DNA from: Malacoraja senta
Lineage: Eukaryota
Length of the DNA stretch: 64,000 nt
Assembly (NCBI GenBank): GCA_038087875.1
Contig: CM075991.1
Location: 1,488,001 to 1,552,000 of the forward strand
Reading direction: 5' to 3'
Positions 27,101 through 58,552 of this stretch are shown here, one piece after another; position 1 is the stretch's first letter; each line of letters starts with the position of its first letter. Below the pieces are notes generated by a model. The model did no database searches. It was not told the DNA's origin and saw only the letters and a program-made list of their open reading frames with translations. Both the position numbers and the translations under genes were made by a program.

Positions 27101-28302
27101 ATGGATGAAGGGGTGCCAGTGGATGTAGTGTATCTAGACTTTCAGAAGGCCTTTGACAAGATCCCGCACGGGAGACTGGTGACTAAAATTAAAGCACATG
27201 GTATTGGGGGTAGGGTGTTGATGTGGATAGAAAATTGGTTGGCAGACAGGAAGCAAAGAGAACGGGTCCTGTTCAGAATGGCAGGCAGTGGCGAGAGGAG
27301 TGCCGCAAGGCTCGGTGTTGGGGCCGCAACGGTTTACCATAAATATTAATGATTTGGAGAAATGGAATTAGGAGCAACACTAGCAAGTTTGCAGATGACA
27401 CAAAGCTGGGTGGCAGTGTGAACTGTGAAGAGGATGTTAGGAGGTTGCAGGGTGACCTGGACAGGTTGAGTGAGTGGGCAGATACAGTATAATATAGATA
27501 AATGTGAGGTTATCCACTTTGGCGGCAAAAACAAGGGGGCAGATTATAATCTCAATTGGGTTAGGTTAGGTAAGGGGGAGGTACAGCGAGACCTGGGTGT
27601 CTTTGTACACCGGTCACTGAAGGTTGGCTTGTAAGTACAGCAGGCTGTGATGAAAGCTAATGGAATGTTGGCCTTCATAACAAGAGGATTTCACTATAGG
27701 AGTAGAGAGGTGCTCCTGCAGTTATATAGGGCTCTGGTGGGACCACATCTGGAGTATTGCGTACAGTTTTGGTCTCCTAATTTGAGGAAGGACATCCTTG
27801 TGATTGAGGCAGTGCAGCGTAGGTTCACGACATTAATCCCTGGGATGGTAGGACTGTCATATGAGGAAAGATTGAAAAGACTAGGCTTGTATTCACTGGA
27901 GTTTAGAAGGATGAGGGGGGATCTTATAGAAACATATAAAATTATAAAAGGACTGGACAAGCTAGATGCAGGAAAAATGTACCCAATGTTGGGCGAGTCC
28001 AGAACCAGGGGCCACAGTCTTAGAGTAAAGGGGAGGCCATTTAAGACAGAGGTGAGAAAAAACATTTTCACCCAGAGAGTTGTGAACTTGTGGAATTCCC
28101 TGCCACAGAGGGCAGTGGATGCCAAATCACTGGATGGATTTAAGAGAGAGTTAGATAGAGCTCTAGAGGCTATTGGAATCAAGGGATATGGGGCAGGCAC
28201 AGGTTATTGATTGGGGACGATCAGCCATGATCGCGATGAATGGCGGTACTGGCTTGCAGGGCCAAATGGCCTCCTCCTGCACCTATTATCTATGTTTCTA
28301 TA
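24188..28302 (+). mobile_element. CR1 LINE (ORF1 C-terminus, EN, RT, 3' tail), frameshifted, with a nested CR1
   Basis: DGLHLN esterase end; YLNARS, GDFN, SDHN; DFQKAFDK; 3' tail TATGTTTCTAT. Confidence 0.92.
25662..26440 (+). mobile_element. 5'-truncated CR1 nested in CR1
   Basis: TSD TACGAA at 25656-25661 and 26441-26446; nearly identical to the 3' end of the 5023 element. Confidence 0.9.
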
Positions 28303-30239
28303 GCCAAGCACGTGTATTATTTAACCAAGGTAAAACACACAATCCTTGGCAATGTGATCATGTACTTATAGACACTCAAATTCTTCCTTTTTAAATATTT
28401 ACTTTTCCTCAGTTTCTTCGTGACATGCTTCTCTCCTACGTTCTTATTTTCAATAAATTATTTACGTATAATATGCATGTGTTCCAAATGTTTTGAAACA
28501 CATCTTTTCATCAATGTACCTTTTAAGCGTGTGTTACCCACCAATTTCAAAACAACATTCGTTAAAAATCTGAAATTGAAAAATTGCTGGCAAACACATT
28601 TGTCCCCATCTACGACTAATGAAATATATGAGTTGTGTAAAAGTTAGAGAACCTACTGTGCAGAGAAAATGAAGTGGTGGGGTAGTGGATGGGCAGGAAC
28701 AAAATAGATGGTCTGTAACATGATAGAATGTAGCTGAGGGTAATTGATGAAAAGCATGATGAATTAAGCCAAAAAAGGAATATTAGAATCAATGACAGGG
28801 CTTTGAACTTAATGTTAAATATGTTCGATGAAAAATGCAGTTGTTTCATGAGTTATGGTTAGTTCATATCTGACTTTTATCAATTTACTCATTTATTGAG
28901 TTAATGTGAAAATAATTTCATTTTTTTATTTATAATACTTTGCATTCAAATAAGGGAGTACTTAACAGCAAAGATGTTATTAGTACCATAGTGTTGTTAA
29001 ATCATTGTGGATACCTAATCTGTGAGATTTTGCTTGCTCACTTGGCCAAGATCTTTAAAAATGTCAGTGTGGCAAAAAAGCTGACATTGAATGTGAGTAG
29101 CAAGTGTTTCAAAGTATGGAAGACCAAATATGCCAAGAAGTCAAAAGTATATTGAGGAAAAAACAATCATGGTGACAATTATGAATATAGATAAAACCTA
29201 GAAACGTACAGCACAAGTACGCATTCTTCTGCCCACAATGTTTGTGGCAAACATGTCAATACGGGGTGGAAGATTGCAACCTTCATGTGGTCCGCCCTGT
29301 TTCGACTAATGCAATCAACTCGACGTGCACAAACAGAAGATCAAATAGAACAAGTTGTCCAACAACTTTAGGCTGTGCACGCCACACGAAAGAAGATGTC
29401 AATACCTTCTCTTATATACATACACATAATCCATATTGCACTATTCCCTGCCTATCCAAACACCTCTTAAATGCCACCATCGTATCTATCAACCACCAAC
29501 CCTGGCAGCACGCTCCAAGCACCCACCACCCCCTGGAAAATGTATGTACACATCTTGTCCCCTTTCCCCCTTTCACCTTCAAAACCATTCCCTCGATTAT
29601 TCATTCTTTCGATCAAACAGTAGAAGTATATAAAACTATGAGAGAACAGAGGTAATAGCTTTTATCTAAGGAGATAGGCAGGGCAAATTGTTTGCACAAA
29701 GTGTTGGGTACCTGATACGCGCTGCTATGGGTGGTTCGATGCGCATTTAAAAGGTTTTTAGATGGGGGCTTGGATATGCAAGAAATGGAGAGATGTGGAT
29801 CACATGTAGATCTCTCATGTTCCACACAGACATTGTGGGCTGAAGGACCTGTTTTTGTGCTGTACCTTTCTATGTTTGATAGATTTAAGTTAACAATTTA
29901 AGTAAACCATTGGGTATCAGGACAAACAAAAATGGATTCTGGAAAATCGTAAATAATCACAGATCTTGTAGGTACCATTTTCCATAGAATTTACACCTTT
30001 CACAAAGTTCAATGCTTAAAGGTCATTTATTGTCATGTGTACCAATTAAGCTACAGTGAAACTCGATTACCATACAGCCATATTTTAAAAAAGCAACAAA
30101 AGACACACAACTACATAGAAATTAACATAAACATCCACCACAGTGGATTCCCCACATTTCTCACTGTGATGGAAGGCAATAAAGTCTAATCTTCCTTCTT
30201 TATTGTTGAGAACTATATTGCAATTGAGGCTAACTTCTT

Positions 30240-31410
30240 ACTGTGACCTATTTTTTAGATAGGAGTCTACACCACAGGGCCCTGGTGGGAGCAGTGACTC
30301 GGGGAAGAGCTGGTCTGGGAATCTTCCCAACTCCCCAGTTTGACAAGGCCAAGGGGAAGGTGAGGCGCAAGCTGGTCCAGGAGGAAGTGAGGGCAGTGAT
30401 GGAGGAGGAGAGGTGTACCAGAGCAGTTGGATTGAGGCAGCAGTGAGCCTGGACAAGGTGGGAGCAGGCCATGGACTGAAAAGTCACATGGACTGAGCTG
30501 TGGCAGGCTGAACCACAGCGCATTGTTCCTGGTCCAGGCAGTGTATGATATCTTGCCCAGCCCATCGAACCTCTTCATCTGGGGCAAAGCAGAATCTCCG
30601 GATTGCCCGCAATGCTCGGGCAAGGGGACGTTGGAACACATCCTGAGCTGCTGCCCAAAGGCTCTTGGGCAGGGCCGGTATACCTGGGGTCATGACCATG
30701 TTCTTAAACCCATTGCAGAAGCCATCAGCATGGGAATCAGCAGCTGCAATGAGCTCGCCCTACCACCGATGATCACCTTCGTGAAGGCCAGAGTGCAGCT
30801 GCCAAGAACCACAGCAGCCAGGAATCAGTCAAGAATCCTGGCGACTGCGAAGGACTGGTAGCCTTCTGTAGACCTGGTGAAACAGCTGAAGTTCTCACAG
30901 CACATTGCGACAACCACCCTGAGGCCAGATATCCTCCTGGTCTCAGAGGCGATCAAAAACATCGTCTTGTTGGAAGTGACAGTGCCGTGGGAAGACCGTC
31001 TGGACGAGGCCCACGAGAGGAAGATGACCAAGTATGAAGAGCTGGTCATAGACTGCAGTAAGCAGGGCTGGAAGGCAAGGCGAATGCCCATCGAGGTTGG
31101 CTGCAGAGGTTTTGCAGGGCAATCGCTCTACAAAGCCTTGAATGCACTGGGCATCAACGGAGTGGCGAGGAGAAGAGCCATCAAGAACACCACAGAGGCA
31201 GCGGAGAAGGCCTTGAGATGGCTCTGGATCAGGAGAGAAGGTCCATGGGGAGGAGCGAATGCCACCCAAATACAAGTCGTGGTCTGATCAACCACGGCTG
31301 GGTCGCCTGGTCGAGGGTGTCTGATGTTGAAAGACCCGAAACACCCAATGACCCCATGTTATATCACTGATGATGTGTTCAGGAGCATCAATAGATGTAT
31401 TTGTTATCAA
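30240..31410 (+). mobile_element. 5'-truncated RLE-type non-LTR retrotransposon (HERO/NeSL-like)
   Basis: CCHC knuckle CPQCSGKGTLEHILSCC; RYTWGHDHVL; restriction-like endonuclease LRPDILL..LLEVTVPWE..KMTKY..IEVGCRGF. Confidence 0.88.
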
Positions 31411-31689
31411 TCACCTTCTTCAATTTACATAGCACTCGGATGATTGAAAAATGTACAGTGGAAAGATGCAAAATTGGATGTCTCAGGGGCTCATTTCATT
31501 TCATTGCTACCGTGACATTATTCTGACTTGTGATCATTTGCAAACTACCAATGCTTGCACATTAGCCTTAGTGTCTAATATGTTTTGCTCATGTAAATGT
31601 ATACTTTAATAGTCCGAGCTCACCATTATCTAATCATAAAAGCATTAGAAACCTGAATTTTAATCAGGAATTTTCTAATTACTTTTAAT

Positions 31690-31990
31690 TTTAGTGTAGA
31701 TACAGCGTGGAAACAGGCCCTTCAGCCCACTGAGTATGCGCTGACCAGCAATCCACGAATATCACAGAGCCTTACACACACTAGAGACAATTTTACATTT
31801 ATACCAAGCCAATTAACCTACAATCCTGTAGGTGTTTGGAGTATGGGATGAAACCGAAGATCTCAGAGAAAGCCCATGCAGGTCACGGGGATAAAATACA
31901 TACTCAATACAGACAGCACCCATAGTCAGGATCGAACAAGGGTCTCTGGCGCTGTAAGGCAGTAACTACCTCTACACCACCTTGCCGCCT
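31690..31990 (-). mobile_element. tRNA-derived V-SINE (HE1-like)
   Basis: Minus-strand tRNA-like head (GGCGGCAAGGTGG..GTTCGATCCTGAC), central domain and CR1-like tail GAAGGGCCTGTTTCC; paralogue at 43230-43445 plus 48770-48832. Confidence 0.8.
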
Positions 31991-32292
31991 TAATGGATGA
32001 GAATGTTTCCATGATTTCTAACTATTTCTAATGAGTCCCCTCACTGGTAATTCATGTTCATATAATGGTCATGTGATTCCTGACCTCACTAATTGCCATC
32101 CAGCTGCCCATCCAGAAAGATATCTGAGGCCAATTGTAGGCCAGGAAGGCACGAAAATTATGAAATGATGGATGATGAAATGTTGCAATATCTCAAAACA
32201 GCAGAGTCTCTGATAGATGTACTAATGTAATTTCCATTTGAATTGCACACACACAGCTTCTGAATATCTGTTATCTGCTTCTTGTTTATAGG

Positions 32293-33910
32293 ATGACAAC
32301 TGCGTTAAAGCTTTTCAACATGTGTGTTCTGATGATCACAGGGAGCTTCTACCATCCCCGCCTCCTGAGTGATGAAGTGGAGACAGAAGAGGTCTAGAAT
32401 AGAATTAAGGAACATGAGTACCGGTACCAACAGCAGATAGAATGGCTCCAGAGCAAAATGGAAGGAAAAAGTAACCATCAGCCTAATATAAAGATCCATT
32501 TATCTGCAGAAAGGGAAGATTCACCAAAAAAAGTACAGGAACACCTATATTACGTTCATACTGGTCATAATTCAGATCTTGGGACTCTGGAGAGGTGACA
32601 TTTTGCCAAATAATCCCCAGGACTATGATAATGAGGAAGAGCAAGAAGAAATGCAAGATGAAGTTCCTCGAAGACCTCACAACAATATTTTGAATAGCCC
32701 TGATCAAAATGTGCTGGATCAGTTCTACAACATCTGCATTCAAAATGGGAGCCAAGAACCAATTGAGACCAGTAAATTTGTAAAATGTTTTGTGGACAGA
32801 CTTTTAGAAGCCGGTCGGAATCTTTGTCCGTGGGGCTCAGAGCTGATCCTCGATGACTGTGTGGGCATTGGGAGTCAGTTTGAAAAATGGAGCTGTAAGA
32901 TACCATCCGTATATGATATTTTGGTTCCAATTTTTCTCCAGGATGGTTATTGTTTTAAACCAGAGATCTGTTCCTGTGACGTTCCATGTGAGAAACAGAG
33001 TTTCGGCAGGATTCTCATGGTTACAGCAAACAACGCTAACCTGGCTAGCCAATGTGAAACCACTGAACCTGAAGGGGACATTCTTTGTCTTATTCACAAC
33101 AAAGGATTCAAACATGATGTTCATTCCAATGGTCTTGCTTCTATCATGGATTCCGATTGTTATTTGGATTATAAGAAGGTAGTGAAATGGTTCAGGGTTT
33201 TATTATCCAAATCATGGAAGAAAATTTGTGATCAAAATGATTTTGAAATTACCTTCCGTAATATTACTGGTTGCTGTGGTTTAAAAGTACAATATCAGTC
33301 AGGACGAACTATTCACATCAAAGTCTTTCCAGCTGTGAGGCTGAAGGGTTCCAATGTCCATCTTGTACCTCGTTTTAACAATTTCCCCAAGAAAAGTACA
33401 GTACCCACTATCTACTGGCACATTTCCTGTGCTGTCTGTGAGTACAGGTTTCTCAAAATCATGACCAAGAATATCCCCAAAAGCTCCTGTCACCTCAAGT
33501 GCCTTCAAATACTGATCGTTCTGACTGAAAAAGTGTGCCATTCACCAGACAAGCGATGTGTTCTTGGCTCCTATATCTTTAAGACTGTCCTGATGCATTT
33601 GCTATTAAGTCAGCCATATTCAAACTGGCAGGAATGTCACCTGGAACATCAGTTCGGAGATGTGTTAAAGTATCTTGGAAAATGTTTGGATGAGAAATGC
33701 CTACACAGATTTATGATTGGAAATCAAACATTTCCTCAACAAATTGGAATTCCAGAATTTCTTCTAAAAGCAGAGCCTATAAATCTCTTCCCGTCATTTG
33801 TAACAGGAAATGAATCTCACTGTCGGGCACTCATGGAATATCAGAAAATATTAAGGGACATGGGACCCCTGATGATTGAGTGCATTAAAAACAATACAAC
33901 AGCTGAGTGA
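32293..33910 (+). CDS. ITPRIP: ITPRIP-like (Mab-21/cGAS-fold) single coding exon, copy 1; N-terminus disrupted, Mab-21 frame 32579..33910 intact
   Basis: Acceptor TTGTTTATAG|G then ATG 32293; signal-like MTTALKLFNMCVLMITGSFYHP; TM-like YITFILVIIQILGLWR; ITPRIP motifs FVDRLLEA, DILCLIH, V.KWF, CHLKCLQI, SYIFKTVLMHLLL, F.IGN, AEPINLF; TAG at 32395 and a frameshift between 32492 and about 32535. Confidence 0.85.
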
Positions 33911-34605
33911 AAACATTGCCTTTGCTCCCAGTAGACTCAAGGAACTGAAAATGTTGGCTGATGATCCTTTGTTCCCAGATATGTAGCAAAATTATTTAAG
34001 CTATCTAATATTTACATTATCGTTACAAATAAAATTAATAGGTTTTTAATTTTAAACTGTACTTTTAGAATAAAATTAATAGATTTCTCCAAAAATAATC
34101 TTTGTTTATAATAAAAAAGTATACAAAAAAATGCCATAAACTCTTCAGATATTTTTAGTGTCTACACATGCACTAGTGTCATTTTCAATAATGTTTGCAC
34201 CTATTCTTAATCAAAACACCGTTGCACCTCATGTGGCTGCCTGGGATTATATCACCTTGTTTGATGAGTGTCCCACCGGACTCTGCCCATCAATGCTCGG
34301 CAGCAGAAGGACCCTGGACTGTGGTCCCCGTCCCACAGAGACTTGGCACCAGCTGCGTCAAGCTTCAGAGCGCCAACCAGTTTGGGTAGACCAAAGAGCA
34401 TCTTTCATGCAGTTGATGGTCTTCCAACAATACGACGTCCATCCGGGATCATCAATGTGGCATTGGGAACAGCCTGTAAAGCAGAGAGTGCTCTGTTACG
34501 GAGCTATTTGAATTGTTAGAATGACCCTTTCATCCTTCTCCAGACTCTCTTTGCAAATCTACACTTTGAAGAATAGTGGGCCACTGCCTCCTGTCTATAG
34601 CAATG

Positions 34606-35250
34606 GTCGGTGCTGGGACTGCTACTCTTCATATTTTATATCCGTGATTTAGTTGGGGGAACGAGGGAATTGAAGGCTTTGTGGTCAAGTTTGCAGTTGA
34701 TATGAAGATTGGTCCTGGGGCAGGTAGTATAGGACCTACTGTAGAAGGACTTGAACTGGTTGGAAGAGTGGTGAAAGAAGTGGCAGATGGTAATACAGTG
34801 TAACACAGTGTGGAGTCATGCATTTTGGCAGTAGGAATAAAGAAATAATAGATTATTTTCTAAATGGGGAGAGAATTCAGAAATCAGAAGTGCAAAGAGT
34901 CCTGGTACAGGATTTCCAAAGCTTCAATTTGCAAGTCAAATCGGTAGTAAGGAAGGCAAAAGGAATTATTGTATTCATTTCGAGAGAACTAGAATATAAA
35001 ACAGGGATGTACGTAATGCTGAGATTTTATAATGCACTGGTCAGACCGCATTTAGAACATTGTGATCGGTTTTGAGCCCCATATCTAAAGTAGGATGTGT
35101 TCATGTTGGAGAGGGTCCAGAGTAGGTTTATAAGAATGATCCCAGAAATGATTGGTTTAACATATGATGAGTGTTTTTTATCGCACTGGGCCTGTACTCT
35201 GGTGTTATGAGGGACCTCATTGAAATATACTGAATAATGAAAGTATTGAT
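34606..35250 (+). mobile_element. Degenerate CR1 remnant, co-duplicated with the ITPRIP-like gene
   Basis: Aligns to 40806-41330 downstream of copy 2. Confidence 0.75.
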
Positions 35251-35594
35251 TAGTACGGGCGTCCTCTCTACCAACAAAGCGAGGTCTTGGTACTTGATAG
35301 TGAGTTTGTCGAAGAGGCATTTCACCAGACAAACTAGGTAGTCTGCTCAAGGAACTACACTATGGGATTCATCAAGTCATGCCCTGCAGTGCCTGCAGAA
35401 TGTTCCTTGCTGCCCACTGCCTGGTGGATTTGTTGTTAAAGATGTTGGAAGAACTTTTTCACAATGGCCAAGTAGTACAACAATTTACAGCTGAATGCGC
35501 AGCATTGATGCCAGGCCATCCTTCACAACAACAGAGAACCTCAGTAAGTAATGACCCTTGGTGCCCATGTGCTTTTTCTCTACGCACAGCCTGA

Positions 35595-35935
35595 TGCAGC
35601 CATACACCATCAGGGTGAGGTTTAAACTAGATTGGCAGAGGGATGGGATCTCATATAGGCAGAGGCAGGTGAGAGGTAGGTATGGAGGGTGGTGAGAGAA
35701 GGTTTAGTGGACAGAATAGACAGGTGAAAGGCGGAGAACGAGGAAGAAGGAATGGTTTAAACTGCACGTATTTTAATGCAAAGGGCCTGACTTGTAAGGC
35801 AGTGGAGCTTAGGGCATGGATAGGTATGTGCGACTGGGACGTTTTGGCCATTACTGAAACCTGGTTAAGAGAGGGGCAGGACAGGCAGCTCAATGGTCCA
35901 GGGTACAGGAGCTTCAGGAGAGACAGCAGTGATGA
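35595..35935 (+). mobile_element. CR1 endonuclease 5' fragment abutting copy 2
   Basis: YFNAKGL..LAITETWLREG. Confidence 0.75.
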
Positions 35936-35938
35936 ATT

Positions 35939-37076
35939 GGAACACCAATATTAGGATCATACTGGTCATAATTCGGGACTTGGGACGCTGGAGAGGTGAC
36001 ATGTTGCCACATAATTCCCATTACTATAATAATGAGGAAGAGGAGGAAGTAATGCGAAATGAAGTTCCTCGAAGACCTCACAACAATATTTTGAATACCC
36101 CTGATCAAAATGTTTTGGATCAGTTCTACAACATCTGCATTCAAAATGGGAGCCAAGAAGAAATTAAAACCTGTGAATTTGCAGAATGTTTTGTGGACAG
36201 TCTTTTAGAAGCCAGTCGGAATCTTTGTTTGGAGCTCAGAGGTGATCCTTGAAGAATGTGTGGGCATTGGGAGTCCGTTTGAAAAATGGGGCTGCAAGAT
36301 ACCATCCCTATATGATATTTTGGTTCCAATTTTTCTCCAGGATGGTTTTTGTTTTAAACCAGAAATCTGTTCCAATGACATCGCACCTGAAAAACGGAGT
36401 TTGGGAATGATTTTCATGGTTACAGCAAACAACTTGTCAATGTGAAACCACAGAACCTGAATGGGACATTCTTTGTCTTATTCACAGCAAAGAATTTGAA
36501 CCTGATGTTCATTCCAATGGTCAGGGATTCCAAGTGGTATTTGGAACCAAGAAGGTAGTGAAATGGTTCAGGGTTTTATTAGCCAAATCATGGAACAAAA
36601 TTTGTCATCAATATGATTTTGAACTGACCTTCCATAATATTGGCTCCTATTTCTTTAAGACATAGAAAATAGGTGCAGGAGTAGGCCATTCAATATGATC
36701 ATGGCTGATCATCCAACTCAGTATCCTGTACCTGCTTTCTCTCCATACCCCCTGATCCCTGAAGACTGTCCTGATGCATCTGCTATTAAGTCAGCAGTGT
36801 TCGAACTGGCAGGAATGTCACCTGGAACATCGGCTCAGAGATGTGTTAAGAAATCTTGGGAAATGCTTGGATGAAAAACGCCTTCACAGATATATGATTG
36901 GAAATCAAACATTTCCTCAGCAAATTGGAATTCCAGAATTGCTTATAAAAGTAGAGCCTATAAACCTCTTCCGGTCATTTGTCACAGAAATGTCAGGCAC
37001 TCATGGAATATCAGGAAATATTAAGGAACATGTTACCGCGAATGATGGAGTGTATTAAAAATAAAACAGCAGCTGA
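35939..37076 (+). pseudogene. ITPRIP-like pseudogene, copy 2 (5'-truncated, frameshifts, about 300-bp deletion, CR1 tail insertion)
   Basis: ORFs 35893..36252, 36242..36445 and 36774..37058 match copy 1; CR1 tail at about 36662-36761 flanked by AAGAC; downstream flank homology continues to 37657 and 39346-39445. Confidence 0.92.
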
Positions 37077-37657
37077 GAGAAAGCTTTGCCTTTGCTCCTT
37101 GGAACTAAAAATGTTGGTTCATGATCCTTTGCTCCCAGATTTAGAGCAGAATTATTTAACCTATCTAATATTTACATTATCGTTAAGAATAACAGTAAAA
37201 GGTTTTACATTTTAAAACTGATCTTTTAGAATAAAATGAATAGATTTTTCCAAAAAACACCAAAAACTTTTAATGTACTGTATTTTGTATCCACACATGC
37301 ACTTGTGTCATCTTCAATAGTGTTCCCACCTATTTTTAATCAATACACCCTTGCTACTCTTGTGGCTGCCTAGAATTATATTCCTTCCCTTGTTTGATGA
37401 GTGTCCCACCGGACTCTGCACATCAATGCTCGGCAGTAGAAGGACCTTAGACTGTGGTCCCCCTCCCATGGAGACTTGGCATCAGCTGTGTCAAGCTTCA
37501 GAACGCCAACGAGTTTGGGTAGACCAAAGAGCATCTTTCATCCAGTTGATGGTCATCCAACAATACAACAACCATCCGGGAACTTCAATGTGTCTTTGGG
37601 AACAGCACGTAAATCAAAAAGTGCTCTGTTACGGAGCAGTTTGGGATGAATCATTAC

Positions 37658-39345
37658 TAGAGCCAGGATGTTTATAAAATTACAAAAAAAGGCACGAAAA
37701 AGGCATTGACAAAAAAGGCATAACAAGGCATGTATTTCCACCACTAAAATATGGTTAAAAATGATAATTATAAAGGTATACTATATTATTGCCTGGTTGC
37801 ACATAACTACTAGCATTTTTTTCAAATTATCTGGTGTTAAACTATGCCGTCTGTCAGGCAGAATGTGCTTCAGTTGTGAAAAACTTCTTTCTACCCCAGC
37901 TGAGGTCACTGGTGCATACCTGAAACAAGCTACAAACACTACATTCATGTTGATATCTTGTGCATTACAACTACCTTTGAGAAATTTAGCTTTGTTTTGT
38001 ACTTCAAGATCTTTGTTAGCTAAAATCCCCCTCTCACATTTTCCTTGTATGTCTTTACCTACATCGCCAGGAACTTTAAGTACAAAGTGCAGCAAGTGAA
38101 GATGTAAACAACTGAGCAATAGTTGTGCTTTTTGACTTCTCCAATGTCAAGAAATACTCCTTTGATGGTTGACCTGCCTCCAGTTTACTGATGACCACAT
38201 TGGCAACATATCTCCCCACAGCATTGGTTGTCTCGTCTATTGAGATCCATATTTTGATGCATGCGACTTCATCTCTAATTTTCTGCACAACAATGTTGAA
38301 GTTGCTGTCAACATAATTTTTCTGTAATGATGACTCGCTCGGTATAGGTTCCTTTGTGTATTTCCCTAAAAAAACTCTGAGATATTTGTTTTCCAATTTC
38401 CACAGTGCAATTCCAGCATCAATGAATGCTTTGCACAGATCACTCGAAAACTCAGATTTGCGATTGGAGCCAGCAGTAAATGTTGTGAGGAGACAAGCTT
38501 GCGTATTTCCTACCTTCAGTTTCTCTGCCGTCGACTTGTGTTTAGCTATCTGTACATGCTGGGAGGCGAAATATTTCTTCTCATGATTCACTGCTTTCGC
38601 ACATGCTTTGCAAAACTGCACACAGTTGTCTGTAGAGAATATATCACTCCCGTACACTCTCACCAAATCGTTCAGTTTTTTATAAGGCGTTGACTTGACT
38701 TTTGGCATTTTGACGCTTGCAGGGGTAGATCCTACAGGAGCGGGGATGCAGACCTCTACAGGCAGGCCAAGTACAAGCTGAGAAGAGGAATCAGAGCTGC
38801 CAAGGAAAGGTACTCTGAGAAGTTGAGGAGCAAGCTCTCAGCATATGACTCTTCTTCAGGTGTGGAAGGGCTTGCAAGAAATCACAAGCTATGAGGAAAA
38901 CCCCCCGCTCCTTGGGCAATCGCCAGCTGACCAATGACCTGAACGAGTTCTCCTGCAGGTTCAATAAACAGAAACTTAACCCTGGTACCCCACACCCCAT
39001 CCAACACTTCACACCTACTCACAACTTGACTCCAGTTTGAAAAGCCTAGATCCTTCCCCACCTACTCCTCCCCAATCACTTCACACCCACTTAAAGCATG
39101 ACTCCAGTCTGCAAAGACTGGACCCTTTCCTACGCACCCCTCTCCAATCACCACTTAACACCCACTTACAGCCGGGTTTCGCCCTGGTGCTGTAAATTTT
39201 CTTGTAAGTTACATTAAATTGGCAAAAAAAGGCTGATTTAAGCACTCAATCGCGATATAGGCATTATCTTCCTGAAATAATCCAAAAAGGCACATGGCAT
39301 TTATGGCACAATCCACATGACATTTATGGCAAAATCCTGGCTCTA
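37658..39345 (-). mobile_element. hAT DNA transposon with deleted transposase
   Basis: 12-bp TIR TAGAGCCAGGAT; 8-bp TSD ATCATTAC/ATCATTGC; zinc finger FCKAC..H....KH, IWISIDETT, dimerization TSAGVERSFS; the site is empty in copy 1. Confidence 0.93.
38725..39170 (+). mobile_element. Rex1/Babar fragment nested in the hAT element
   Basis: Translates YRSGDADLYRQAKYKLRRGIRAAK, homologous to about 7790-7870. Confidence 0.65.
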
Positions 39346-39471
39346 ATCATTGCAATGACCCCTTCATCTTTCTCCAGACCCTCTTTGCAAATCTACATTT
39401 TTGAAAATGGTGGCCCATTGCCTCCTATCTATAGCAGTGGTCTGTCAGCATCTTACATTATTAGAAAGTCT

Positions 39472-41365
39472 CCATGAGGGAATTTGTTGAGTTTCTACGA
39501 GATGGTTTCTTGGAGCATCTTGTAGTTGAGCCTACCGGGGAAAAGGCAATGCTGGATTCAAATTATCTGGGTTTTATTCCGATGGTTAAGTTGAAGCAAC
39601 CGCGAAGGGGTAGTGACCATAATATGGAAAATTCAACCTGCAATTTGAGAGGGAGAAGATGAAATCAGATGTATCAGTATCATAGCTGAGCAAAGGGGAC
39701 TACAGAAGCACGAGGGGGGAATTGGCTAAAGTTCATTTGAAATAGACCTTAGCAGGAATGATAGCAGGAACTTCTGGGAATTTGGAAGACACAGGATCTT
39801 TTCATTCCAAAGAGGAAGAAAGATTCCATGGGGAGAATGAGGCGACCGTGGCTGACAAAGCAACTCAAAGGTAGTATAAAACTGAAAGATTAATACAACA
39901 TTGCAAAGATTAGTGGGAAGCTAGCGTATAGGGAAATGTTTAAAACCAACAGAAGGAAAGTAAATTATTCCCAGAAAGTAAAAAAGCCAATAATATGAAA
40001 GAGGGTAACAAAGGTTTCTTCAGATATATAAAGAGTAAGAAAGAGGCTAGAGAGGACATTGGACTGCTGAAAAATGATGCTGTAGAAGTGATAATGGGGA
40101 ATCAAGAAATGGCAGCGGAATTAAACACATTTTTTTGTAGTGGAAGACACCAGCAATGTGCCTGAAATACAAGATAAACAAGGTGGAGGTTGGTGGTGGC
40201 TTTTACAAAGGAGAAGGTGCTGAAGGTGGCTGGGTCACCTCGGCCAGATGTACATCACCCCAAGGTTCTGAAAGAGGTTGCTTTAGACATTGTGGAAGCA
40301 TTAGTAAAGACCTTTCAAGAAACACTAGAATCAGGAGTGGTTTCAGACAAATGGGAAATTGCAAATATTACTTTGCTGTTCTAGAAGGGAGTGAAGCAGA
40401 AGAGTGGAAACTATATGCCGGTTTGCCTGACTTCAGTGGTTGGTAGATTTTAGTCCATTATAAAGGATGAGTGTTGTGAGTATTTAGCTGTTCATGATAA
40501 AATAGCCTGGTCTTGTTAAAGGGAGATCGTGCTTGACAAACCTGTTGGAATTTTTTGAGGAAATTAAATAGCAGTTTAGACAAAGGAGAGCCAGTGGATG
40601 CTGTTTACCTGGATTTTCAGAAGGCCATTGACAAGGTGCTAAAGAATGCTGCTAAAGAAGATGAGAGCCCATTGGATAAGAGGGAAGATGAGAGGCAAGA
40701 TGGATTTGCATGGAGAGCTGGTTGGCTGGATGGCAGAAGGCAAGGAGTGACAATAAAGCGGGCTTTTTCTGGTTGGCTGCTACTGACTAGTGGGGATCTG
40801 CAGGCGTCGGTGCTGGGGCCGCTACTCTTCATATTGTATATCAGTTATTTATATGAGGGCTTAAAGCTTTTGTGGCCAAGTTTTCAGATGATACGAAGAT
40901 AGGTTGAGGGGCAGGTAGTGTAGAGAAAGCAGGGAAACTGCAGAAGGACTTGAACAGGTTGGGAGAGTGGGGAAAGAAGTGCGCAAATGGAATACAGCAT
41001 GACAAAGTGTGGAGTCATGCATTTTGGTGGTGGGAATAAAGACGTAAACTGTTTTCTAAATGGGGAGAGAATTCAGAAATCAGAAATGTAAAGGGACTTG
41101 GAAGTCCTGGTACAGGATTCCCAAAATGTTAACTTGCAAGTCTAATCAGTAGTAAGGAAGACAAAAGTAATTCTTACATTCATTTCGAGAGGACTAGAAT
41201 ACAAAAACAGGTATGTAATTCTGAGACTTTATAAGGCACTGGTCAGATCGCATTTGGAGTATTGTGAGCGGTTTTGGACCCTATATCTGAAAAAGGGTTT
41301 GTTCGTGTTGGAGAAGGTCCAGAGGAGCAACTTTGGACACAATGTCTGAGGAAGGATGTACTGGC
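39472..41365 (+). mobile_element. Degenerate CR1 LINE
   Basis: [35 protein letters not shown]. Confidence 0.85.
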
Positions 41366-41374
41366 TGTGTCAGA

Positions 41375-43445
41375 CCTTTGACCTTAATGTTGAATATGTA
41401 GGATGAAAAATGCAGGTTGTTTCATGAGATAATGTTAGTTTATATCTGTCATTTTTTAGTTTTCTCAATTATTGAGTTAATGTGATAAATATTTTTAATT
41501 CTTTAAAAAAAAATGCTTTGTGTTCATACAAAAAGGGAGTACTGCTGATCAAAGATGTTATCAGTACCATAGTGTCATTAATTATTTGTTAAATCATTGT
41601 GGATACCTCATCTGTGAGATTTGCTTACTCACTTGGCCAAGATCATTAAAAATATCAGTGTGGCAATAAAGCTGATATTGAATGTGTGTAGCCAGTGTTT
41701 CAAAGTATTAAAGAATGTGTATGCCAAAAAGTCAAAAGTATATTGAAATAAAAACATGGTCACAATTATGAGTATAGAAAAAAACCTAGAAGCGTACTGC
41801 ACACACACACATCCTTCGGCCCACAATGTTTGTGGCAAACATGATGTCAAGACCTTCTCTTGTCTACCTGCAGATAGTCCAAATTGCACCATTCCCTGCA
41901 CATTCCTCTGCCTATCCAAACGCCTCTTATATGCCACTATCATATCTGCCTCAACCACCAACCCTGGCAGCATGCTCCAGGCACTCACCACCCCTTGGAA
42001 AATTTCCCCGTTCACCTTCAAAACCATTCCCTCTTAGTTGAAGAATCTTTTCTCTCAAATATTAGAAGTATATAAAACTATCAAAGGCCAGAGGGAAAAG
42101 TTTTTATGAGAGGAGATGTGCAGGGCAAATTGTTTTTGCCGATTACGCATGGGTGGTGCTGGCAGTGGATAAGATGGGCATTTACAAAGTTTTTAGATGG
42201 GGACATGGATATGCAAGGAATGGAGATGTGGATCACATGTAGATCTCTCATGTTAGATATAGTTCTTAGGGCTAACGGAATAAAGGGATATGGGGAAAAA
42301 ACAGAAACAGGGTACTGATATTGTGGGCTGAAGGACCTGTTTCTTGGCCATACCTTTCTATGTTTGATAGATCTAAGTAATTTAAGTAACCCAATGGGTA
42401 TCAGGTAAAAAAACAATTGGATTCTGGAAAATCGGATATAAACACGGAACTTGTAGGCACCACTTTCTATAGAATTTACACAAATTTCAATGCTGAGCAA
42501 TAGATTGCAATTGAGACTAACCTGACGTCTTTTCTTTTTACTTTGATCCCCTGTTTATAATACCAAGATTCATCAAAGTTTTTTTGAAATATTTATACAG
42601 AGATTCATGGGTTTATATCACTACACAAATACCATTTATTTGTGCTTCTCTTTCAAAGTATCTGTGTTAAGGAGAGATTTGATTATGTATTTGGAGATAA
42701 TGTTTCTGCCAATATTTGTTTCAACCAGATAAATTGGAGAGAAAAATGTCATGTTCTTAACTTGGTAAGATCAGTACCATGTTAGATGGTGAGGTAGTTG
42801 AATGAAGACACAGGGCACCACAGATGCTGCAACTTTGAGTAAAACATAAAGTACAGGAGTATGTTACTGAGGAATTCACCATGTGTGAGAAGAACATGCA
42901 ATGTTTATCAGTCAGAGTGACTTCCTTAACTTGTTTTGATAGCCTATCGTGGGATCAGAGAGGAATGTTCCACATTTCACCTTCACCTCCAATTGTTCTC
43001 TTTATTTAACCTTTCACCTTCAATTTACATAGCACTCGCATGAGTGAAACATATATACAGTGGAAAAATGCTCAATTGCAAACTACCAATGCTTGCTCAT
43101 TGGCCTTAGAGTCTAGTATTTTTTGCTCATGTAAATGTAGACTTTAATAGTCTGAGCTCACCATTATCCAATCAAAAAGCATTAGAAACTTGCGTTATCA
43201 TTGAGAATTTTCTAATTACTTTTAATTTTAGTTTTAGTTTAGTGATACAGTGCGGAAACAGGCCCTTCGGCCCACCGACCAGCAATCCCCACTAGGGGCA
43301 ATTTTACATTTATACCATTTTCATATTTCTAAACTAAACCAAGCCAATTAACCTACAAACCTGTAGGTCTTTGGAGTACAGGAGGAAACCGAAGATCTCG
43401 GAGAAAATTCACACATCACGGAGACAATGTACAAACTCCGTACAG
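41375..43445 (+). repeat. Segmental duplicate of the upstream region of ITPRIP-like copy 1 (28795-31915)
   Basis: Colinear blocks, e.g. 28801 vs 41376, 29880 vs 42370, 31420 vs 43020; continues at 48770-49148 after a CR1 insertion. Confidence 0.9.
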
Positions 43446-43499
43446 GCTAATGGCACATGGGGTAGGCTAATGGGACTGAAGGATGATAAATCCCCCGGA

Positions 43500-46400
43500 A
43501 GGGGATGAATATTCTGCAGCGTGACTTTAGAGAGCTCGGAAAAATGCTGAAAAGCAAGACCTCCAGGGTTGTTATCTCTGATTTGCTTCCATTTCCTCGT
43601 GCTGGCGAGAGCAGGAACAGGGAGATACGGGACCTGAATGTGTGGCTGAGGAAGTGGTGCAGGGGGCAGGGATTTAGATTCTTAGATCACTCAGAACTGT
43701 TTTGGAGTAAGGGGGAACTGTACAAAAGGGACTGATTGCATCTTAACAGGTGGGGAACCAGCATTCTGGCAGGCAGGTTTGCCACTCCACTGCTACACGG
43801 GTGGTGTTAAACTGAATAAGGGGGGTGGGGTGTCAAATGGGATAGTCGAGGATGGAGTTAAAGGGAAAGAGAGTAAAGGGATGGTTAATGACCCCAGAAT
43901 TAACGGGAAAGGAAGCTCACAAAGGGATAGGAGAGTATGGCCAAGTGTAATAGGGATCGATGTGAAAGGTGAGATGCATAAGGAATTAAAAGTATTGTAT
44001 ATGAATGCGCGAAGTATAAGAAATAAAGTAGATGAGCTTGAGGCTCAGTTAGAGGTTGGTAGATATGACATTGTGGGGATTACTGAGACGTGGCTGCAGG
44101 AGGATCGGGCCTGGGAACTTAATATTCAGGGTTATATATCCTATAGAAAGGACAGGCAGGTGGGCAGAGGAGGGGGGGTTGCTCTGCTGGTGAGGGATGG
44201 AATTCAGTCCCTTGCGAGGGAAGACAAAGGGACTGACGAGGTAGAGTCACTGTGGATTGAGTTGAGGAATTGTAAAGGCAAGAAGACACTAATTGGTGTT
44301 ATTTACAGACCCCCAAATAGTAGCCCGGATGTAGGGTGTAAGTTGCAGCAGGAGTTAAAACTGGCATGTAACAAAGGTAATGCCACTGTGGTGATGGGGG
44401 ATTTCAATATGCAGGTAGACTGGGAAAATCAGGTTGGTTCAGGACCCCAAGAAAGAGAGTTTGTAGAATGCCTCCGAGATGGATTCTTAGAGCAGCTTGT
44501 AATGGCGCCAACCAGAGAAAAAGGCAATTCTGGATTTAGTGTTGTCCAATGAACCAGATATGAACCAGTGATGCAGTTGAACAAAGGGGACTATGAAGGC
44601 ATGAGAGGGGAGCTGGCCAAAGTAGACTGGAAAGGGATCCTAGCAGGAATGACGGTGGAACAGCAATGGCAGGAATTTCTGGGCATAAACCGGGAGACGC
44701 AGGATCATTTCATTCCAAAAAGGAAGAAAGATTCTAAGGGGAGTAGGAGGCAACAATGGCTGACAAGAGAAGTTAGGGATAGGATAAAACTAAAAGAAAA
44801 GATGTATAACACAGCAAAGAGTAGCTGGAAGCCAGAGGATTGGGAAACTTTCATAGGACAACAGAAGGAAACAAAACGGGCAGAAAAGATGAAGTACGAG
44901 GGGAAGCTGGCCAGGAATATAAAGAAGGACAGTAAAAGCTTCTTTAGATATGTTGAGGGAAAAAGAGTAGCAAAGTCAAATGTGGGTCCCTTGAAGGCAG
45001 ACATGGGTGAAATTATTATAACCATATAAGCACGGAAACAGGCCGTCTCGGCCCTTCAAGTCCGTGCCGAACATTAAAAAAAAAAAAAAAAAAAAACTTC
45101 CCCCTGGTCCCATCTACCTGCACTCAGACCATAACCCGCCATTCCGTTCCCGTCCATATACCCATCCAATCTATTTTTAAAGGATAAAATCGAACCAGCC
45201 ACCACTTCCACTGGAAGCTCATTCCACACAGCTACCACTGTCTGAGTAAAGAAGTTCCCCCTAATGTTACCCCTAAACTTCTGTCCCTTAATTCTCAAGT
45301 CATGTCCCCTCTTAACCTTCTGCGCTCCAAAGAATAATGACCTAACTTGTTCAACCTTTCTCTGTAACTTAGTTGCTGAAACCCAGGCAACATTCTAGTA
45401 AATCTCCTCTGTACTCTCTCTATTTTGTTGACATCCTTCCTACAATTAGGCGACCAAAATTGTACTCCATACTCCAGAATTGGCCTCACCAATGCCGTGT
45501 ACAATTTTAACATTACATCCCAATTTCTATATTTAATGCTCTGATTTATAAAGGCCAGCACACCAAAAGCTTTCTTTACCACCCTATCTACATGAGATTG
45601 CACCTTCAGGGAACTATGCACAGTTATTCCTGGATCCCTCTGTTCAACTGCATTCCTCAATTCTCTACCATTTACCATGTACGTCCTATTTTGATTTGTC
45701 CTGCCGAGATGTAGTACCTCAAATTTATCAGCATTAAACTCCATCTGCCATCTTTCAGCCCACTCTTCCAAATGGCCTAAATCTCTCTGTAGACTTTGAA
45801 AATCTACTTCATTATCCACCACACCACATATCTTAGTATCATCTGCATACTTACTAATCCAATTTTCCACACCATCATCCAGATCATTGATGTACATGAC
45901 AAACAACAGTGGACCCAACACAGACCCCTGAGGCACCCCACTAGTCACCAGCCTCTAACCTGACAAACAGCCATCCACCATTACTCTCTGGCATCTCCCA
46001 TTCAGCCACTGTTGAATCCATCTTGCTACTCCACCATTAATACCCAACAATTTAATCTTCTTAACCAACCTTCCATGAGGAACCATGTCAAAGGCCTTAC
46101 TGAAGTCCATATAGACAACATCCACTGCTTTACCCTCATCAATTTCCCTAGTAACCTCTTCGGAAAATTCTAGAAGATTAGTCAAACATGACCTTCCAGG
46201 CACAAATCCATGTTGACTGTTCCTAATCAGACCCTGCTTATCCAGATGCTTATATATATTATCTTTAAGTATCCTTTCCATTAATTTGCCCACCACTGAC
46301 GTCAAACTAACAGGTCTATATTTGCTAGGTTTACTCTTAGAACCCTTTTTAAACAACGGAACAACATGCGCAGTACGCCAATCCTCTGGCACTATTCCCA

Positions 46401-48770
46401 TTTCTAATGACATTTGAAATATTTCTGTCATAGCCCCTGCTATTTCTACACTAACTTCCCTCAATGTCCTCGGGAATATCCTGTCAGGACCTGGAGACTT
46501 ATCCGTTTTCATATTTTTCAAAAGTGTCCGCACCTCCTCTTCTTTGAATCTCATAGTTTCCATTGCTACTCTGCTTGTTTCCCTTACCTCACATAATTCC
46601 ATATCCTTCTCCTTGGTGAATACCGAAGAAAAGAAATTGTTCAGTATCTCCCCCATCTCTTTTGGCTCTGCAGATAGCTGTCCACTCTGACTCTCAAATG
46701 CACCAATTTTATTCCTTGTTATCCTTTTGCTATTAATATAGCTGTAGAAACCCTTTGGATTTACTTTCACCTTACTTGCCAAAGCAACCTCATATCTTCT
46801 TTTAGCTTTTCTAATTTCTTTCTTAACATTCTTTTTACATTCTTTATACTCCTCAAACACGTCATTTACACCATGCTGCCTATAATTGTAGATCTCTCTC
46901 TTTTTCCGAACGAAGTGTCCAATTTCCCTTGAAAACCTTGGCTCTTTCCAATTTTTACTATTTTCTTTCAACCGAACAGGGACATAAAGATTCTGTACTC
47001 TTAAAATGTCACCTTTAAATGTCCTCCATTTCTCTGCTACATTATGGGCAACAAGGAAATGGCAGAAGAGTTGAATAGGTACTTCGGATCTGTCTTCACT
47101 AAGGAAGACAAACAATCTCCCAGATGGACTGGAGGACAGAGGATCTAAGGGGGTAGAGGAAATGAAATAAATTTTGATTAGGCGAGAAATAGTATTGGGT
47201 AGACTAATGGGACTGAAGGATGATAGATCCCCTGGGCCCGATGGTCTGCATCCCAGGGTCCTCAGGGAGGTGGCTCTAGAAATAGTGGACGCATTGGTGA
47301 TAATTTTCCAAATGTTCAATAGATTCAGGATCAGTTCCTGTGGATTGGAGGATAGCTAATGTTATCCCACTTTTCAAGAAAGGAGCGAGAGAGAAAACTG
47401 GGAATTACAGACCAGGTAGCCTGACTTCGGTGGTGGGAAAGATGCTGGAGTCAATTATTAAAGAGGTAATAATGAGGCATTTGGATAGCAGTAAAAGGAT
47501 TAGTCCAAGTCAACATGGATTTATAAAAGGGAAATCCTGCTTGACTAATCTTCTGGAATTTTTTGAGAATGTGACAAGTAAAATGGATGAAGGGGTGCCA
47601 GTGGATGTAGTGTATCTAGACTTTCAGAAAGCCTTCGATAAGGTCCCGCACGGGAGACTGGTGACTAAAATTAGAGCACATGGTATTGGGGGTAGGGTGT
47701 TGACGTGGATAGAAAATTGGTTGGCAGACTGGAAGCAAAGAGTAGGAGTGAACGGGTCCTTTTCAGAATGGCAGGCAGTGGCGAGTGCCGCAAGGCTCGG
47801 TGTTGGGGCCGCAACTGTTTACCATATATATTAATGATTTGGAAGAGGGAATTAGGAGCAACACTAGCAAGTTTGCGGATGACACAAAGCTGGGTGGCAG
47901 TGTGAACTGTGAAGAGGATGTTAGGTGGTTGCAGGGTGACCTGGACAGGTTGAGTGAGTGGGGACATGCGTGGCAGATGCAGTATAATATAGATAAATGT
48001 GAGATTATCCACTTTGGCGGCAAAAACAAGGGGGCAGATTATTATCTCAATGGGGTTAGGTTAGGGGGAGGTGCAGCGGGACCTGGGCGTCCTTGCACAC
48101 CGGTCACTGAAGGTTGGCTTACAGGTACAGCAGGCAGTGAAGAAAGCCAATGGAATGTTGGCCTTCATAACAAGAGGATTTCAGTATAGAAGTAAAGAGG
48201 TTCTTCTGCAGTTGTATAGGGCTCTGGTGAGACCACATCTGGTATATTGTGTACAGTTTTGGTCTCCTAATTTGAGGAAAGACATCCTTGTGATTGAGGC
48301 AGTGCAGCGTAGGTTCACGACATTGATCCCTGGTATGGCGGGACTGTCATATGAGGAAAGATTGAAAAGACTAGGCTTGTATTCACTGGAGTTTAGAAGG
48401 ATGAGGGGGAATCTTATAGAAACATATACAATTATTAAAGGACTGGACAAGCTAGATGCAGGAAAAATGTTCAGAATGTTGGGCGAGTAAAGGGGAGGTC
48501 ATTTAAGACTGAGGTGAGAAAAAACCTTTTCACCCAGAGAGTTGTGAATTTATGGAGTTCCCTGCCACAGAGGGCAGTGGAGGCCAAGTCACTGGATGGA
48601 TTTAAGAGAGAGTTAGATAGAGCTCTAGGGGCTGGTGGGGTCAAGGGATATGGGGAGAAGGCAGGCATGGGTTATTGATAGGGGACGATCATCCATGATC
48701 ACAATGAATGGCGGTGCTGGCTCGAAGGGCCGAATGGCCTCCACCTGCACCTATTTTCTATGTTTCTATG
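43500..48770 (+). mobile_element. CR1 LINE (same subfamily as 24188..28302) inserted in the V-SINE, with an antisense CR1 nested inside
   Basis: EN ORF 43779..44552; RT ORFs 47174-48490; 3' tail TATGTTTCTATG. Confidence 0.92.
45020..47040 (-). mobile_element. 5'-truncated CR1 of a different subfamily, nested
   Basis: RT ORFs 45955..47319 and 45295..45948 ([22 protein letters not shown]); TSD ATTAT at 45015-45019 and 47041-47045. Confidence 0.9.
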
Positions 48771-49148
48771 ATCAAACTCAGGTGTCTGGCACTGTAAGCA
48801 GTAGCTCTACTACAATGCCATCATGCCACTCTTAATGGATGAGAATGTTTCCATGATTTCTAACTGTATTTCTAATGAGTCTCTCACTGGTAATTCATGT
48901 TCATATAATGATTGTCACTAATATAATGACTGACCCCACTAATTGCCATCCACCTGCCCACTTGATTAAACATATCTGAGGCCACTTGTAGAGCAGGAAG
49001 TCACCTGCACAAAAAATATGAGATAGTGATTGATGCAATATTCCAATGTCTCAAAACAGCGGAGTCTCTGATAAATGTACTAATGTAGTTTCCATTTGAA
49101 TTGCACACACACCTTCTGAATATCTGTTATCTGTTTGTTGTTTATAGG

Positions 49149-49652
49149 ATGTTAACTGCGGTAAAACCTTTCAACATGTGTGTTCTGATGATCACAGGGA
49201 GCTTGTACCATCTCCGCCTCCTGAGTAATAATACTGGTTGCTGTGGTTGAAAAGTACAATATCAGTCAGAACAAAATATTCACAACAAAGTCTTTCCTGC
49301 TGTGAGGCTGAAGGGTTCCATTGTCCATCTTGTACCTTGTTTTTCCCCAAGAATAGTACAGTACCCACTACCTACTGACACATTTCCTGTGCTGTCTGTG
49401 AGTACAGGTTTCTCAAAGTTATGACCAAGAATATCCCCAAAAGCTCCTGTCACCTGAAGTGCCTTCAAATACTGATCATTCTGATTGAAAAATTGTGCCA
49501 TTCACCAGACCAGCGATGTGTTCTTGGCTCCTCTCTTTAAGACTGTCCTGATGCATCTGCTATTAAGTCAGCAGTATTTGAACGGGCAGGAATGTCACCT
49601 GGAGCATCAGCTCAGAGATGTGTTAAAATATCTTGGGAAATGCTTGGATGAG
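49149..49652 (+). pseudogene. ITPRIP-like pseudogene, copy 3 (about 890-bp internal deletion, 3' truncated)
   Basis: Same acceptor and ATG (49149); jumps at 49226 from the copy-1 equivalent of 32370 to 33260; FKTVLMHLLLSQ..ECHLEHQLRDVLKYLGKCLDE. Confidence 0.92.
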
Positions 49653-57234: not shown

Positions 57235-58552
57235 GTGTAAGAAGGAACTGCAGATGCTGGTTTAAACTGTAGACACAAAAAGCTGGAGTAACTCAGTGGG
57301 ACAGGCAGCATCTCTGGAGAGAAGTAATGGGTGGTGACGTTTCGGGTCGAGACCCTCCTTCAGACTGGTTAGGGATAAAGAAAATGAGAGATATAGACGG
57401 TGATGTGGAGAGATAAGGAGCAATGAATTAAAGATATGCAAAAAAAGTAACGATGATAAAGGAAACTGGCCATTGTAAGCTGTTTGAGAAGCTAGTGCGA
57501 CTTGGGTGGAGGAGGGATAGAGAGAGAGAATGCAGGGGCTACCTGAAGAGAGAGAAATCTATATACCACAGGGCTGCAAGGCAGGAGGTATAGCGATAGG
57601 TGTTGCATTTTCTGCAGTTGCAGGGGAAGTCAGCTTGGGTGGGTGGAAAGGGATGAGTTAACCAGGGAGTTGCGGAGGAAAAGGTCTCTGCAGAAGGCGG
57701 AAAGGCGTAGAGATGAGAAAATGTGGCTTGTGGTGGCATCCCGTTGGAGGTGGCGGAAATTTCGGAGGATTATGAGTTGTATGTGACAGCTGATGGGGTG
57801 GAAGGTAAGGACTAGGGGGACTCTGTCTCTGTTGTGACTAGGGGGAGGGGGAGCATGGGTGGAGCTGCAGGTTACAGGGGAGACATGAGTGAGGGCCTCA
57901 TCTATGATGGGAGAGGACAACTCCTGTCCCCTAAAGAATGAGGACATCTTGGATGTTCTAGTGTGGAACACTTCATCTTGGGCGCATATGCGGCGTAGGA
58001 ATTGGGAGGAGGGGATAGAGTCTGCAGGAAGCAGGGTGGGAAGAAGTGTAGTCACGATCGTTGTGGGAGTCACTGGGTTTGTAATAGACGTCAGTCAATA
58101 GTCTATTTCCTGTGATAGTGACTGTGGGTTCCCCTCATCTCCCGGTTACTTTAATTCTCCCTCCCATTCCCCTTTCTCCTCGGTCTCCTCCATTGTCAGA
58201 CTGAGGCTCAATGCAAATTGGAGGAACAGCATCTCATATTTCACTTGTGCAGCTTGCAGCCCAGTGGTATGAATATTGATTTATCTCACCAGGTAACCCC
58301 GGTATTCCCTCTCTTTATCCCTCCAAGTCGCACTAGCCTCTCATTTTCACTCTGCAAACAGCTTATAATGGCCTGTTTACTTTATCATCATTACCTTTTT
58401 GCATATCTTTCATTCATTGTTCTTTATCTCTCCACTTCACCGTCTATATCTCTTGTTTCCCTTATCCCTAACCAGTCTGAAGAGTCTCCACCCGAAATAT
58501 CACCCATTCCTTCTCTCCAGAGTTTCTGCCTGAGTTATTCCAGCTTTTTGTG
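57235..58552 (-). mobile_element. Degenerate Penelope-like element with inverted pLTRs
   Basis: SQFLRRICAQDEVFHTR..RVPLVLTFHP; 57270-57560 and 58270-58552 are inverted copies. Confidence 0.85.

Follow-up and report, generated by a model that had tools for sequence, protein, structure and literature searches.

The 64,000-nucleotide stretch of the genome of the skate Malacoraja senta analysed here (contig CM075991.1, positions 1,488,001 to 1,552,000; hereafter the window) harbours three tandem copies of a gene of the ITPRIP family. The locus is best explained as a decaying tandem array of skate-specific duplicates of a probable ITPRIPL1 orthologue, which most likely evolve under relaxed selection and whose first copy in the window was disabled recently, a reading to which we assign a probability of roughly two in three. 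The original prediction, made from the sequence alone, had proposed a birth-and-death cluster of ITPRIP-like genes at this site, and this turnover is supported by the gain of copies in skates, the pseudogenes in the window, and the intact sister copies in the skate Rhinoraja.

Self-comparison of the window and translated searches, which were used to find and bound the copies, identified exactly three members of the family, all on the forward strand, at 32293-33910 (copy 1), 35939-37077 (copy 2), and 49149-49652 (copy 3), in agreement with the three same-strand paralogues proposed originally. No family fragments were found in the window outside these copies, and one match with E = 0.013 was judged to be due to chance. 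Copy 1, delimited by tblastn with the Rhinoraja protein P0002 and by Pfam, is a full-length coding sequence (CDS) in a single exon and is disabled. Copy 2 is a pseudogene that begins near codon 82, lacking the first ~80 codons, and shows several deletions that shift the frame. A further ~300 bp are missing from its interior, a CR1 tail of ~100 bp lies in inverted orientation at about 36660-36760, and a stop at the usual position is lacking. Copy 3 retains the ATG and 27 codons, followed by an internal deletion of ~885 bp, stops, frameshifts, and a truncated 3' end. The expectation that the copies decayed differently after duplication is supported.

The non-coding block upstream of copy 1 (unit A; 28793-32292, forward strand) matches the two pieces (41368-43445 and 48770-49148) of the block upstream of copy 3 (unit C; 41368-49148, forward strand), which is split by ~5.3 kb of other CR1 insertions. 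The DNA common to both amounts to about 2 kb in five blocks: 28793-29255/41368-41843 (81% identity), 29389-30016/41837-42494 (70%), 31418-31476/43018-43078 (85%), 31531-31912/43069-43445 (76%), and 31930-32373/48770-49229 (83%). The gap in this alignment is occupied by a fragment of a retrotransposon without long terminal repeats (non-LTR) that is present only in unit A (30250-31390, forward strand); we presume it to be of the restriction-like-endonuclease type from motifs in its open reading frame (ORF), and Pfam returned no match. The block in unit A ends with a splice-acceptor-like pyrimidine tract and AG, immediately followed by the ATG, and the same sequence precedes the ATG in copies 1 and 3. 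Because the homologue P0028 differs from the genomic read-through upstream of its methionine, the block is probably an intron.

On the downstream side, copies 1 and 2 have ~0.7 kb in common (33911-34510/37078-37643 and 34520-34611/39354-39445), with 81-87% identity across the flank of unit A (33911-34608, forward strand). This flank leads into an old CR1 remnant (34606-35260, forward strand), whose segment 34606-35125 is 79% identical to 40806-41327, whereas other CR1 matches in the window reach at most 62%. In unit B, which contains copy 2, the downstream flank (37078-41327, forward strand) is split by a hAT transposon fossil and other DNA, and a longer version of the shared CR1 (39477-41327) follows. 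The hAT fossil (about 37650-38840, reverse strand; PF05699 with E = 1.6e-5, DUF659 below the cut-off) entered the flank after the duplication.

The sharing of upstream DNA, downstream flank, and CR1 that had been predicted for all three paralogues therefore holds between pairs of copies, and no flank is common to all three; the upstream side is gone from copy 2, the downstream side from copy 3. The same orientation, the shared non-coding flanks, and the shared old CR1 nevertheless bear out the predicted tandem duplication at the DNA level, and retroposition is rejected because both the intron-side flanks and the old CR1 are shared between copies. Misassembly, which would have undercut the original prediction, is excluded by base differences of 6-15% between copies: because the flanks differ by 12-15% and the coding parts by 6-12%, the assembly is neither collapsed nor doubled here. 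Across the 113 bp common to all three, copies 2 and 3 are the closest pair (6%), and the other pairs differ by 11-12%.

The original prediction, which referred to an ORF of 443 amino acids (aa), overlooked that copy 1, too, is not an intact gene. In a tblastn search with P0002, residues 1-79 align in frame 1, including a stop (75%), and residues 83-537 in frame 2 (85%). The two lesions are a TAG at codon 35 (32395-32397) and a +1 shift near codon 80 in a run of seven A (32526-32532), both on the forward strand. The supposed ORF matches the frame downstream of the shift if it is taken to start with the TTG that forms residue 30 of a 472-codon open stretch; the first in-frame ATG of this stretch is residue 54 and lies past the transmembrane segment. 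Related sequences were available as contigs from four public runs (of 22 listed), representing three related organisms. The stop position is a sense codon at full depth in all three runs that cover it, and the fourth run lacks coverage; the extra A is absent at full depth in two of the four runs. Contig ends are loose at this point in a third run, and no gap is listed for the remaining one. Because related skates read through the stop, and some lack the extra base, copy 1 looks recently pseudogenised. The contig depths at copy 1 fall into two or more classes, which give no copy number and were not used. The one run guessed to be RNA (X15) covers 32122-33890 at a depth of ~5, including intron-like DNA, and is uninformative on expression.

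The eight best database matches of the family are chondrichthyan proteins named “ITPRIP-like”. The matches form one conserved cluster of sharks and sawfish, and further clusters of stingrays and mantas, Narcine (two proteins), Callorhinchus, and skates. Their identity was assessed with a quick tree of 49 rows and a careful tree of 25 rows, built from named rows hand-picked among several hundred fetched, with ITPRIPL2 represented by birds only and TMEM102, MB21D2, and cGAS left out. The chondrichthyan group (100/100), ITPRIP with its shark and ray members (95/96), and the ITPRIPL1 of bony vertebrates (83/93) each form a clade, and the chondrichthyan group joins ITPRIPL1 in both trees, with a support of 76 in the 49-row tree and 81/81 in the 25-row tree. 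There are 22 diagnostic columns for ITPRIPL1 versus 8 for ITPRIP, and the best non-chondrichthyan profile matches are the ITPRIPL1 proteins of coelacanth and lungfish. With sawshark ITPRIP as the query, separate ITPRIP proteins of sharks and rays were recovered; among the 120 of 369 matches listed, ray and shark ITPRIP were present and skate ITPRIP was not. An identity with ITPRIP is rejected, since the group falls outside the ITPRIP clade, an approximately unbiased (AU) test speaks against grouping the two (p = 0.027), and sharks and rays possess a separate ITPRIP.

The predicted distinctness from the ITPRIP orthologue thus stands, but the notion of an elasmobranch-specific subfamily is not supported, because the parent lineage includes the holocephalan Callorhinchus and the expansion is confined to skates in the data seen. 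To judge from the trees and the diagnostic columns, the parent lineage most likely represents the ITPRIPL1 orthologue of all jawed vertebrates. NCBIfam assigned none of five proteins to a family, and Rfam returned no matches. The ITPRIP proteins of a stingray and a manta (P0285 and P0313) sit on a very long stem (0.77), which indicates that both genes of the family accelerate in batoids.

In a tree of 17 rows devoted to the expansion, a parental skate clade (100/99) comprises proteins of Leucoraja, Amblyraja, and one of Rhinoraja. Its sister clade of duplicates (100/100) consists only of skates and contains the three window copies and four other full-length Rhinoraja proteins, a placement that marks the window as skate DNA. 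The window copies and P0002 form an older subgroup (100/98), whose sister group consists of the three remaining Rhinoraja duplicates; these are mutually 95-96% identical and apparently stem from a recent burst. The five Rhinoraja proteins (537-539 aa) are listed on contigs that are each 19,793,500 long and were taken as one chromosome. No protein of the duplicate clade was found for Leucoraja or Amblyraja among the matches listed. The Amblyraja parental protein (P0021) has only 316 aa and lacks ~220 internal residues, reflecting either a broken gene or a faulty model. The electric ray Narcine possesses an independent second, fast-evolving copy (P0006 and P0009).

The rate of evolution in the duplicate clade is roughly double that of the parental skate gene. 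In relative-rate tests against Pristis, the duplicates show more changes than the parental copies in all four pairs (81:41, 75:37, 70:38, and 81:34; p from 2e-3 to 1e-5). Among the first 80 residues, the duplicates differ from Pristis at 33-38 positions and the parental copies at 22-25; in a linker of 35 residues, the numbers are 16-19 versus 5-6. This concentration of change in the ectodomain and the linker fits relaxation and adaptation alike.

The predicted Mab-21/cGAS fold, a nucleotidyltransferase core with a helical bundle at the C-terminus, is supported by several lines of evidence. The frame of copy 1 matches Pfam Mab-21_C above the cut-off (E = 3.3e-7) and Mab-21 below it, and a profile search recovers cGAS, cGLR1, and MAB21L1. 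A structure model of the open frame, built with 99 sequences, has a predicted local distance difference test score (pLDDT) of 85, and its top Foldseek matches are cGAS and MiD51, with a template-modelling score (TM-score) to the cGAS target of ~0.7 and an E value of ~1e-13. By hydropathy, peaks start at residues 1 and 84-85 (the second near 84-99) in all three intact chondrichthyan relatives, which suggests a layout of a hydrophobic leader, an ectodomain of ~60 residues, one transmembrane helix, and a cGAS/MiD51-fold domain. The active site of cGLRs is defined by the motif h[QT]GS-x8-20-[DE]h[DE]h-x50-90-h[DE]h (PMC9980059). This motif is absent from the homologous site in all 17 proteins, and the column of the first catalytic acid, located by a weak hidden Markov model alignment to cGAS, holds V or I in each of them. 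One full match to the pattern (in P0008) lies in the leader and not in the active site, and the four loose matches that were checked all trace to other parts of the protein. According to Kuchta et al. (PMC2794190), the catalytic residues are retained in only a part of the Mab-21 family. Because the catalytic acids are lost, the protein is probably a membrane-anchored pseudo-enzyme that would act by binding or as an adaptor rather than by producing a nucleotide signal.

How the array arose may be pictured as follows. From one conserved gene of cartilaginous fish, most likely the ITPRIPL1 orthologue, the skate ancestor gained a duplicate, as the tree shows. Unequal crossing-over could then copy whole genes easily, because the CDS is a single exon in a unit that measures only ~5-6 kb, and CR1 elements are abundant in the region; the junction of units B and C lies inside CR1 sequence. 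The duplicates evolved at about twice the parental rate, multiplied independently in different skates, and were in part lost again by deletion, insertion, and point mutation. Copies 2 and 3 have been broken for long, and copy 1 appears to have been disabled recently. The regime behind this turnover is most likely relaxed selection on redundant copies, possibly with a testis bias as in the tree sparrow, rather than pathogen-driven immune change.

Several observations weigh against this account. The support for the grouping with ITPRIPL1 is moderate, stays below the level starred in the trees (76; 81/81), and depends on long-branch outgroups. The pairwise ratios of nonsynonymous to synonymous substitution rates (dN/dS; 0.68 and 0.64, in pairs involving pseudogenes) show some past constraint, and the four full-length Rhinoraja duplicates, together with the open frames in relatives, suggest that selection keeps some copies; of 199 columns that are otherwise invariant, no more than 18-19 distinguish P0002 and P0003 from the parental gene. 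Because it lies in a homopolymer, the frameshift of copy 1 may stem from an error of the assembly. Derived residue changes are nearly as numerous in copy 2 (28) as in copy 1 (29), so that the picture of one constrained copy beside one old pseudogene fails.

That the parent gene is a fourth paralogue of the ITPRIP family, kept only in cartilaginous fish and distinct from ITPRIPL1, would agree with its long stem (0.53), the moderate support for the join, and database names that do not go beyond “ITPRIP-like”; we consider it unlikely, as it requires two extra gene losses, no other chondrichthyan ITPRIPL1 exists among 20 named representatives, and the joint clade shows the expected species order, with cartilaginous fish followed by ray-finned and lobe-finned fish. 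A functional copy 1, with lesions that reflect either faulty assembly or a null allele, or with a shorter, soluble Mab-21 protein made from a downstream ATG, is quite improbable: although 456 codons remain open after the frameshift, the shift sits in a run of seven A, and relatives that are 96-98% alike are open at these sites, the lesions are two and separate, one of them is a substitution, and a family-invariant Trp beside the frameshift is changed as well. Among the 40 of 258 rows listed, there are 12 coding sites at which the window mostly disagrees with each of the runs that cover them, and 10 of these alter the encoded residue, which is close to the neutral share of 0.8. Compared with a Logan protein of 95% identity, copy 1 shows the derived state at seven of ten differences, and it lacks C186, R387, and L388, each kept by at least 85% of 98 homologues. 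The sensing role akin to that of cGAS and cGLRs that the original prediction implied is not supported, given the failure of the catalytic motif. Active nucleic-acid sensors of the cGLR type are extremely improbable: the cGAS fold is present, and all 14 chondrichthyan proteins retain the GS loop with the Glu after it, one Asp, and the second acid, but only one acid of the [DE]h[DE] pair is left in each of the 17 proteins, and the position that we assign, from the fold, to the third catalytic acid holds K, Q, or N in 14 of 14.

An immune interpretation of the turnover, though possible, is not supported. Mammalian ITPRIPL1 is reported to be a testis-enriched ligand of CD3 epsilon (10.1101/2022.02.25.481189), and the duplicates might accordingly be CD3-epsilon-binding checkpoint ligands driven apart by positive selection; the broken copies would then represent the “death” part of the process. 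The excess of N-terminal and linker differences over the parental copies and the repeated expansions in skates and birds are in keeping with such diversification; it is nonetheless unlikely, given that the dN/dS values obtained are all below 1, albeit from pairs involving pseudogenes, that all three window copies are broken, and that the N-terminal region is the least conserved family-wide, so that faster change there is equally expected from relaxation. Neutral, repeat-driven, or testis-biased turnover, of the kind reported for ITPRIPL in the sparrow, fits as well as an immune cause. More speculative, and unlikely, is a wider scenario in which ITPRIPL1, the reported CD3-epsilon ligand, is as old as the jawed vertebrates, persists in sharks as one strongly conserved gene, and expanded independently, with an accelerated ectodomain, in skates and birds. 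The family would then be engaged in a recurrent arms race or in protection of the germline and would co-evolve with the T-cell receptor complex. Relaxed selection on redundant duplicates is the reading that we retain.

No credible neighbouring gene was found among about 150 open stretches of the window scanned with Pfam (~148 of 238 listed, plus two), which yielded transposon domains and three weak matches below the cut-off that were judged to be chance. A CpG-rich stretch at 63240-63620 resembles a housekeeping or bidirectional promoter, with motifs that we presume to be ETS-like and NRF1-like; the gene at this stretch could provide an anchor for synteny. The segment 51339-51505 is a 70% match to 29773-29928 and may be what is left of a fourth unit, or else a repeat of the dispersed kind. 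Two CR1 copies with 90% identity (26561-28301 and 47041-48769) lie just upstream of the unit A and unit C blocks, and 24189-25660 is 90-92% identical to 43518-44899; these pairs look like independent young insertions, since they are placed differently in the flank. Elsewhere, a near-complete non-LTR element with endonuclease and reverse-transcriptase frames (6760-9480, forward strand) lies inside a CR1 of the opposite strand. The element at 61390-62840 (reverse strand) combines a reverse-transcriptase frame of 395 codons with a subsequent GIY-YIG-like frame and has a second, diverged copy at 57584-58290; we take it to be Penelope-like.

The “ITPRIP-like” proteins of sharks, rays, and chimaera are likely misnamed and appear to be ITPRIPL1, an identity that would trace a protein reported as a T-cell checkpoint ligand back to the base of the jawed vertebrates. 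The contrast between sharks, in which the gene is conserved, and skates, in which it evolves fast and has several copies, lends itself to tests of selection and CD3 binding. The locus itself illustrates gene turnover clearly and on a small scale, and it encodes no intact protein as assembled.

Among known systems, ITPRIPL1 (CD3L1), which we take to be identical to DANGER 1B, is closest to the skate genes. It is their sister group in both trees, shares the 22 diagnostic columns, and has the leader, ectodomain, transmembrane helix, acidic linker, and Mab-21 domain in the same layout; by contrast, identity to the proteins of coelacanth, lungfish, and mammals is only ~31-37%, and the window copies are pseudogenes. 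A 2007 survey reports orthologues of DANGER 1B only in mammals (PMC1784063). ITPRIP (DANGER 1A) belongs to the same subfamily, with the same architecture and ~30% identity, but forms a clade of its own that already holds shark and ray orthologues. With cGAS and the cGLRs, the genes have the fold and the GS loop in common, whereas they lack the catalytic triad, possess a membrane anchor, and show 15-16% identity. The best mechanistic analogue is MiD51 (MIEF1), a membrane-anchored, catalytically inactive adaptor of the nucleotidyltransferase fold with a mitochondrial role, which is among the top fold matches; the identity is 17-19%, and there is no sign of orthology.

Our searches, which mostly did not extend to subscription journals, found no literature on chondrichthyan ITPRIP, the evolution of shark ITPRIPL1, or an expansion of ITPRIPL1 in birds. 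Database entries list several ITPRIPL1 proteins per species in cranes and kiwi, and eight proteins of Grus americana share one contig and fall into a single cluster at 90%. An expansion of this kind is already known from a bird: for the tree sparrow, a study reports an ITPRIPL expansion by segmental duplication, with 25 copies in duplicated blocks, and states for eight expanded families that most new members are pseudogenes and that the active ones are testis-biased (10.1101/2023.02.19.529176). The skate array is a new instance. As in birds, it involves segmental duplication of the same family, many of whose avian copies are reported to be pseudogenes; unlike the avian expansions, it is of independent origin and comprises fewer copies. 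The skate units are tandem, only a few kb long, and embedded in DNA rich in CR1; the copies of the sparrow, by contrast, are reported to be relatively dispersed.

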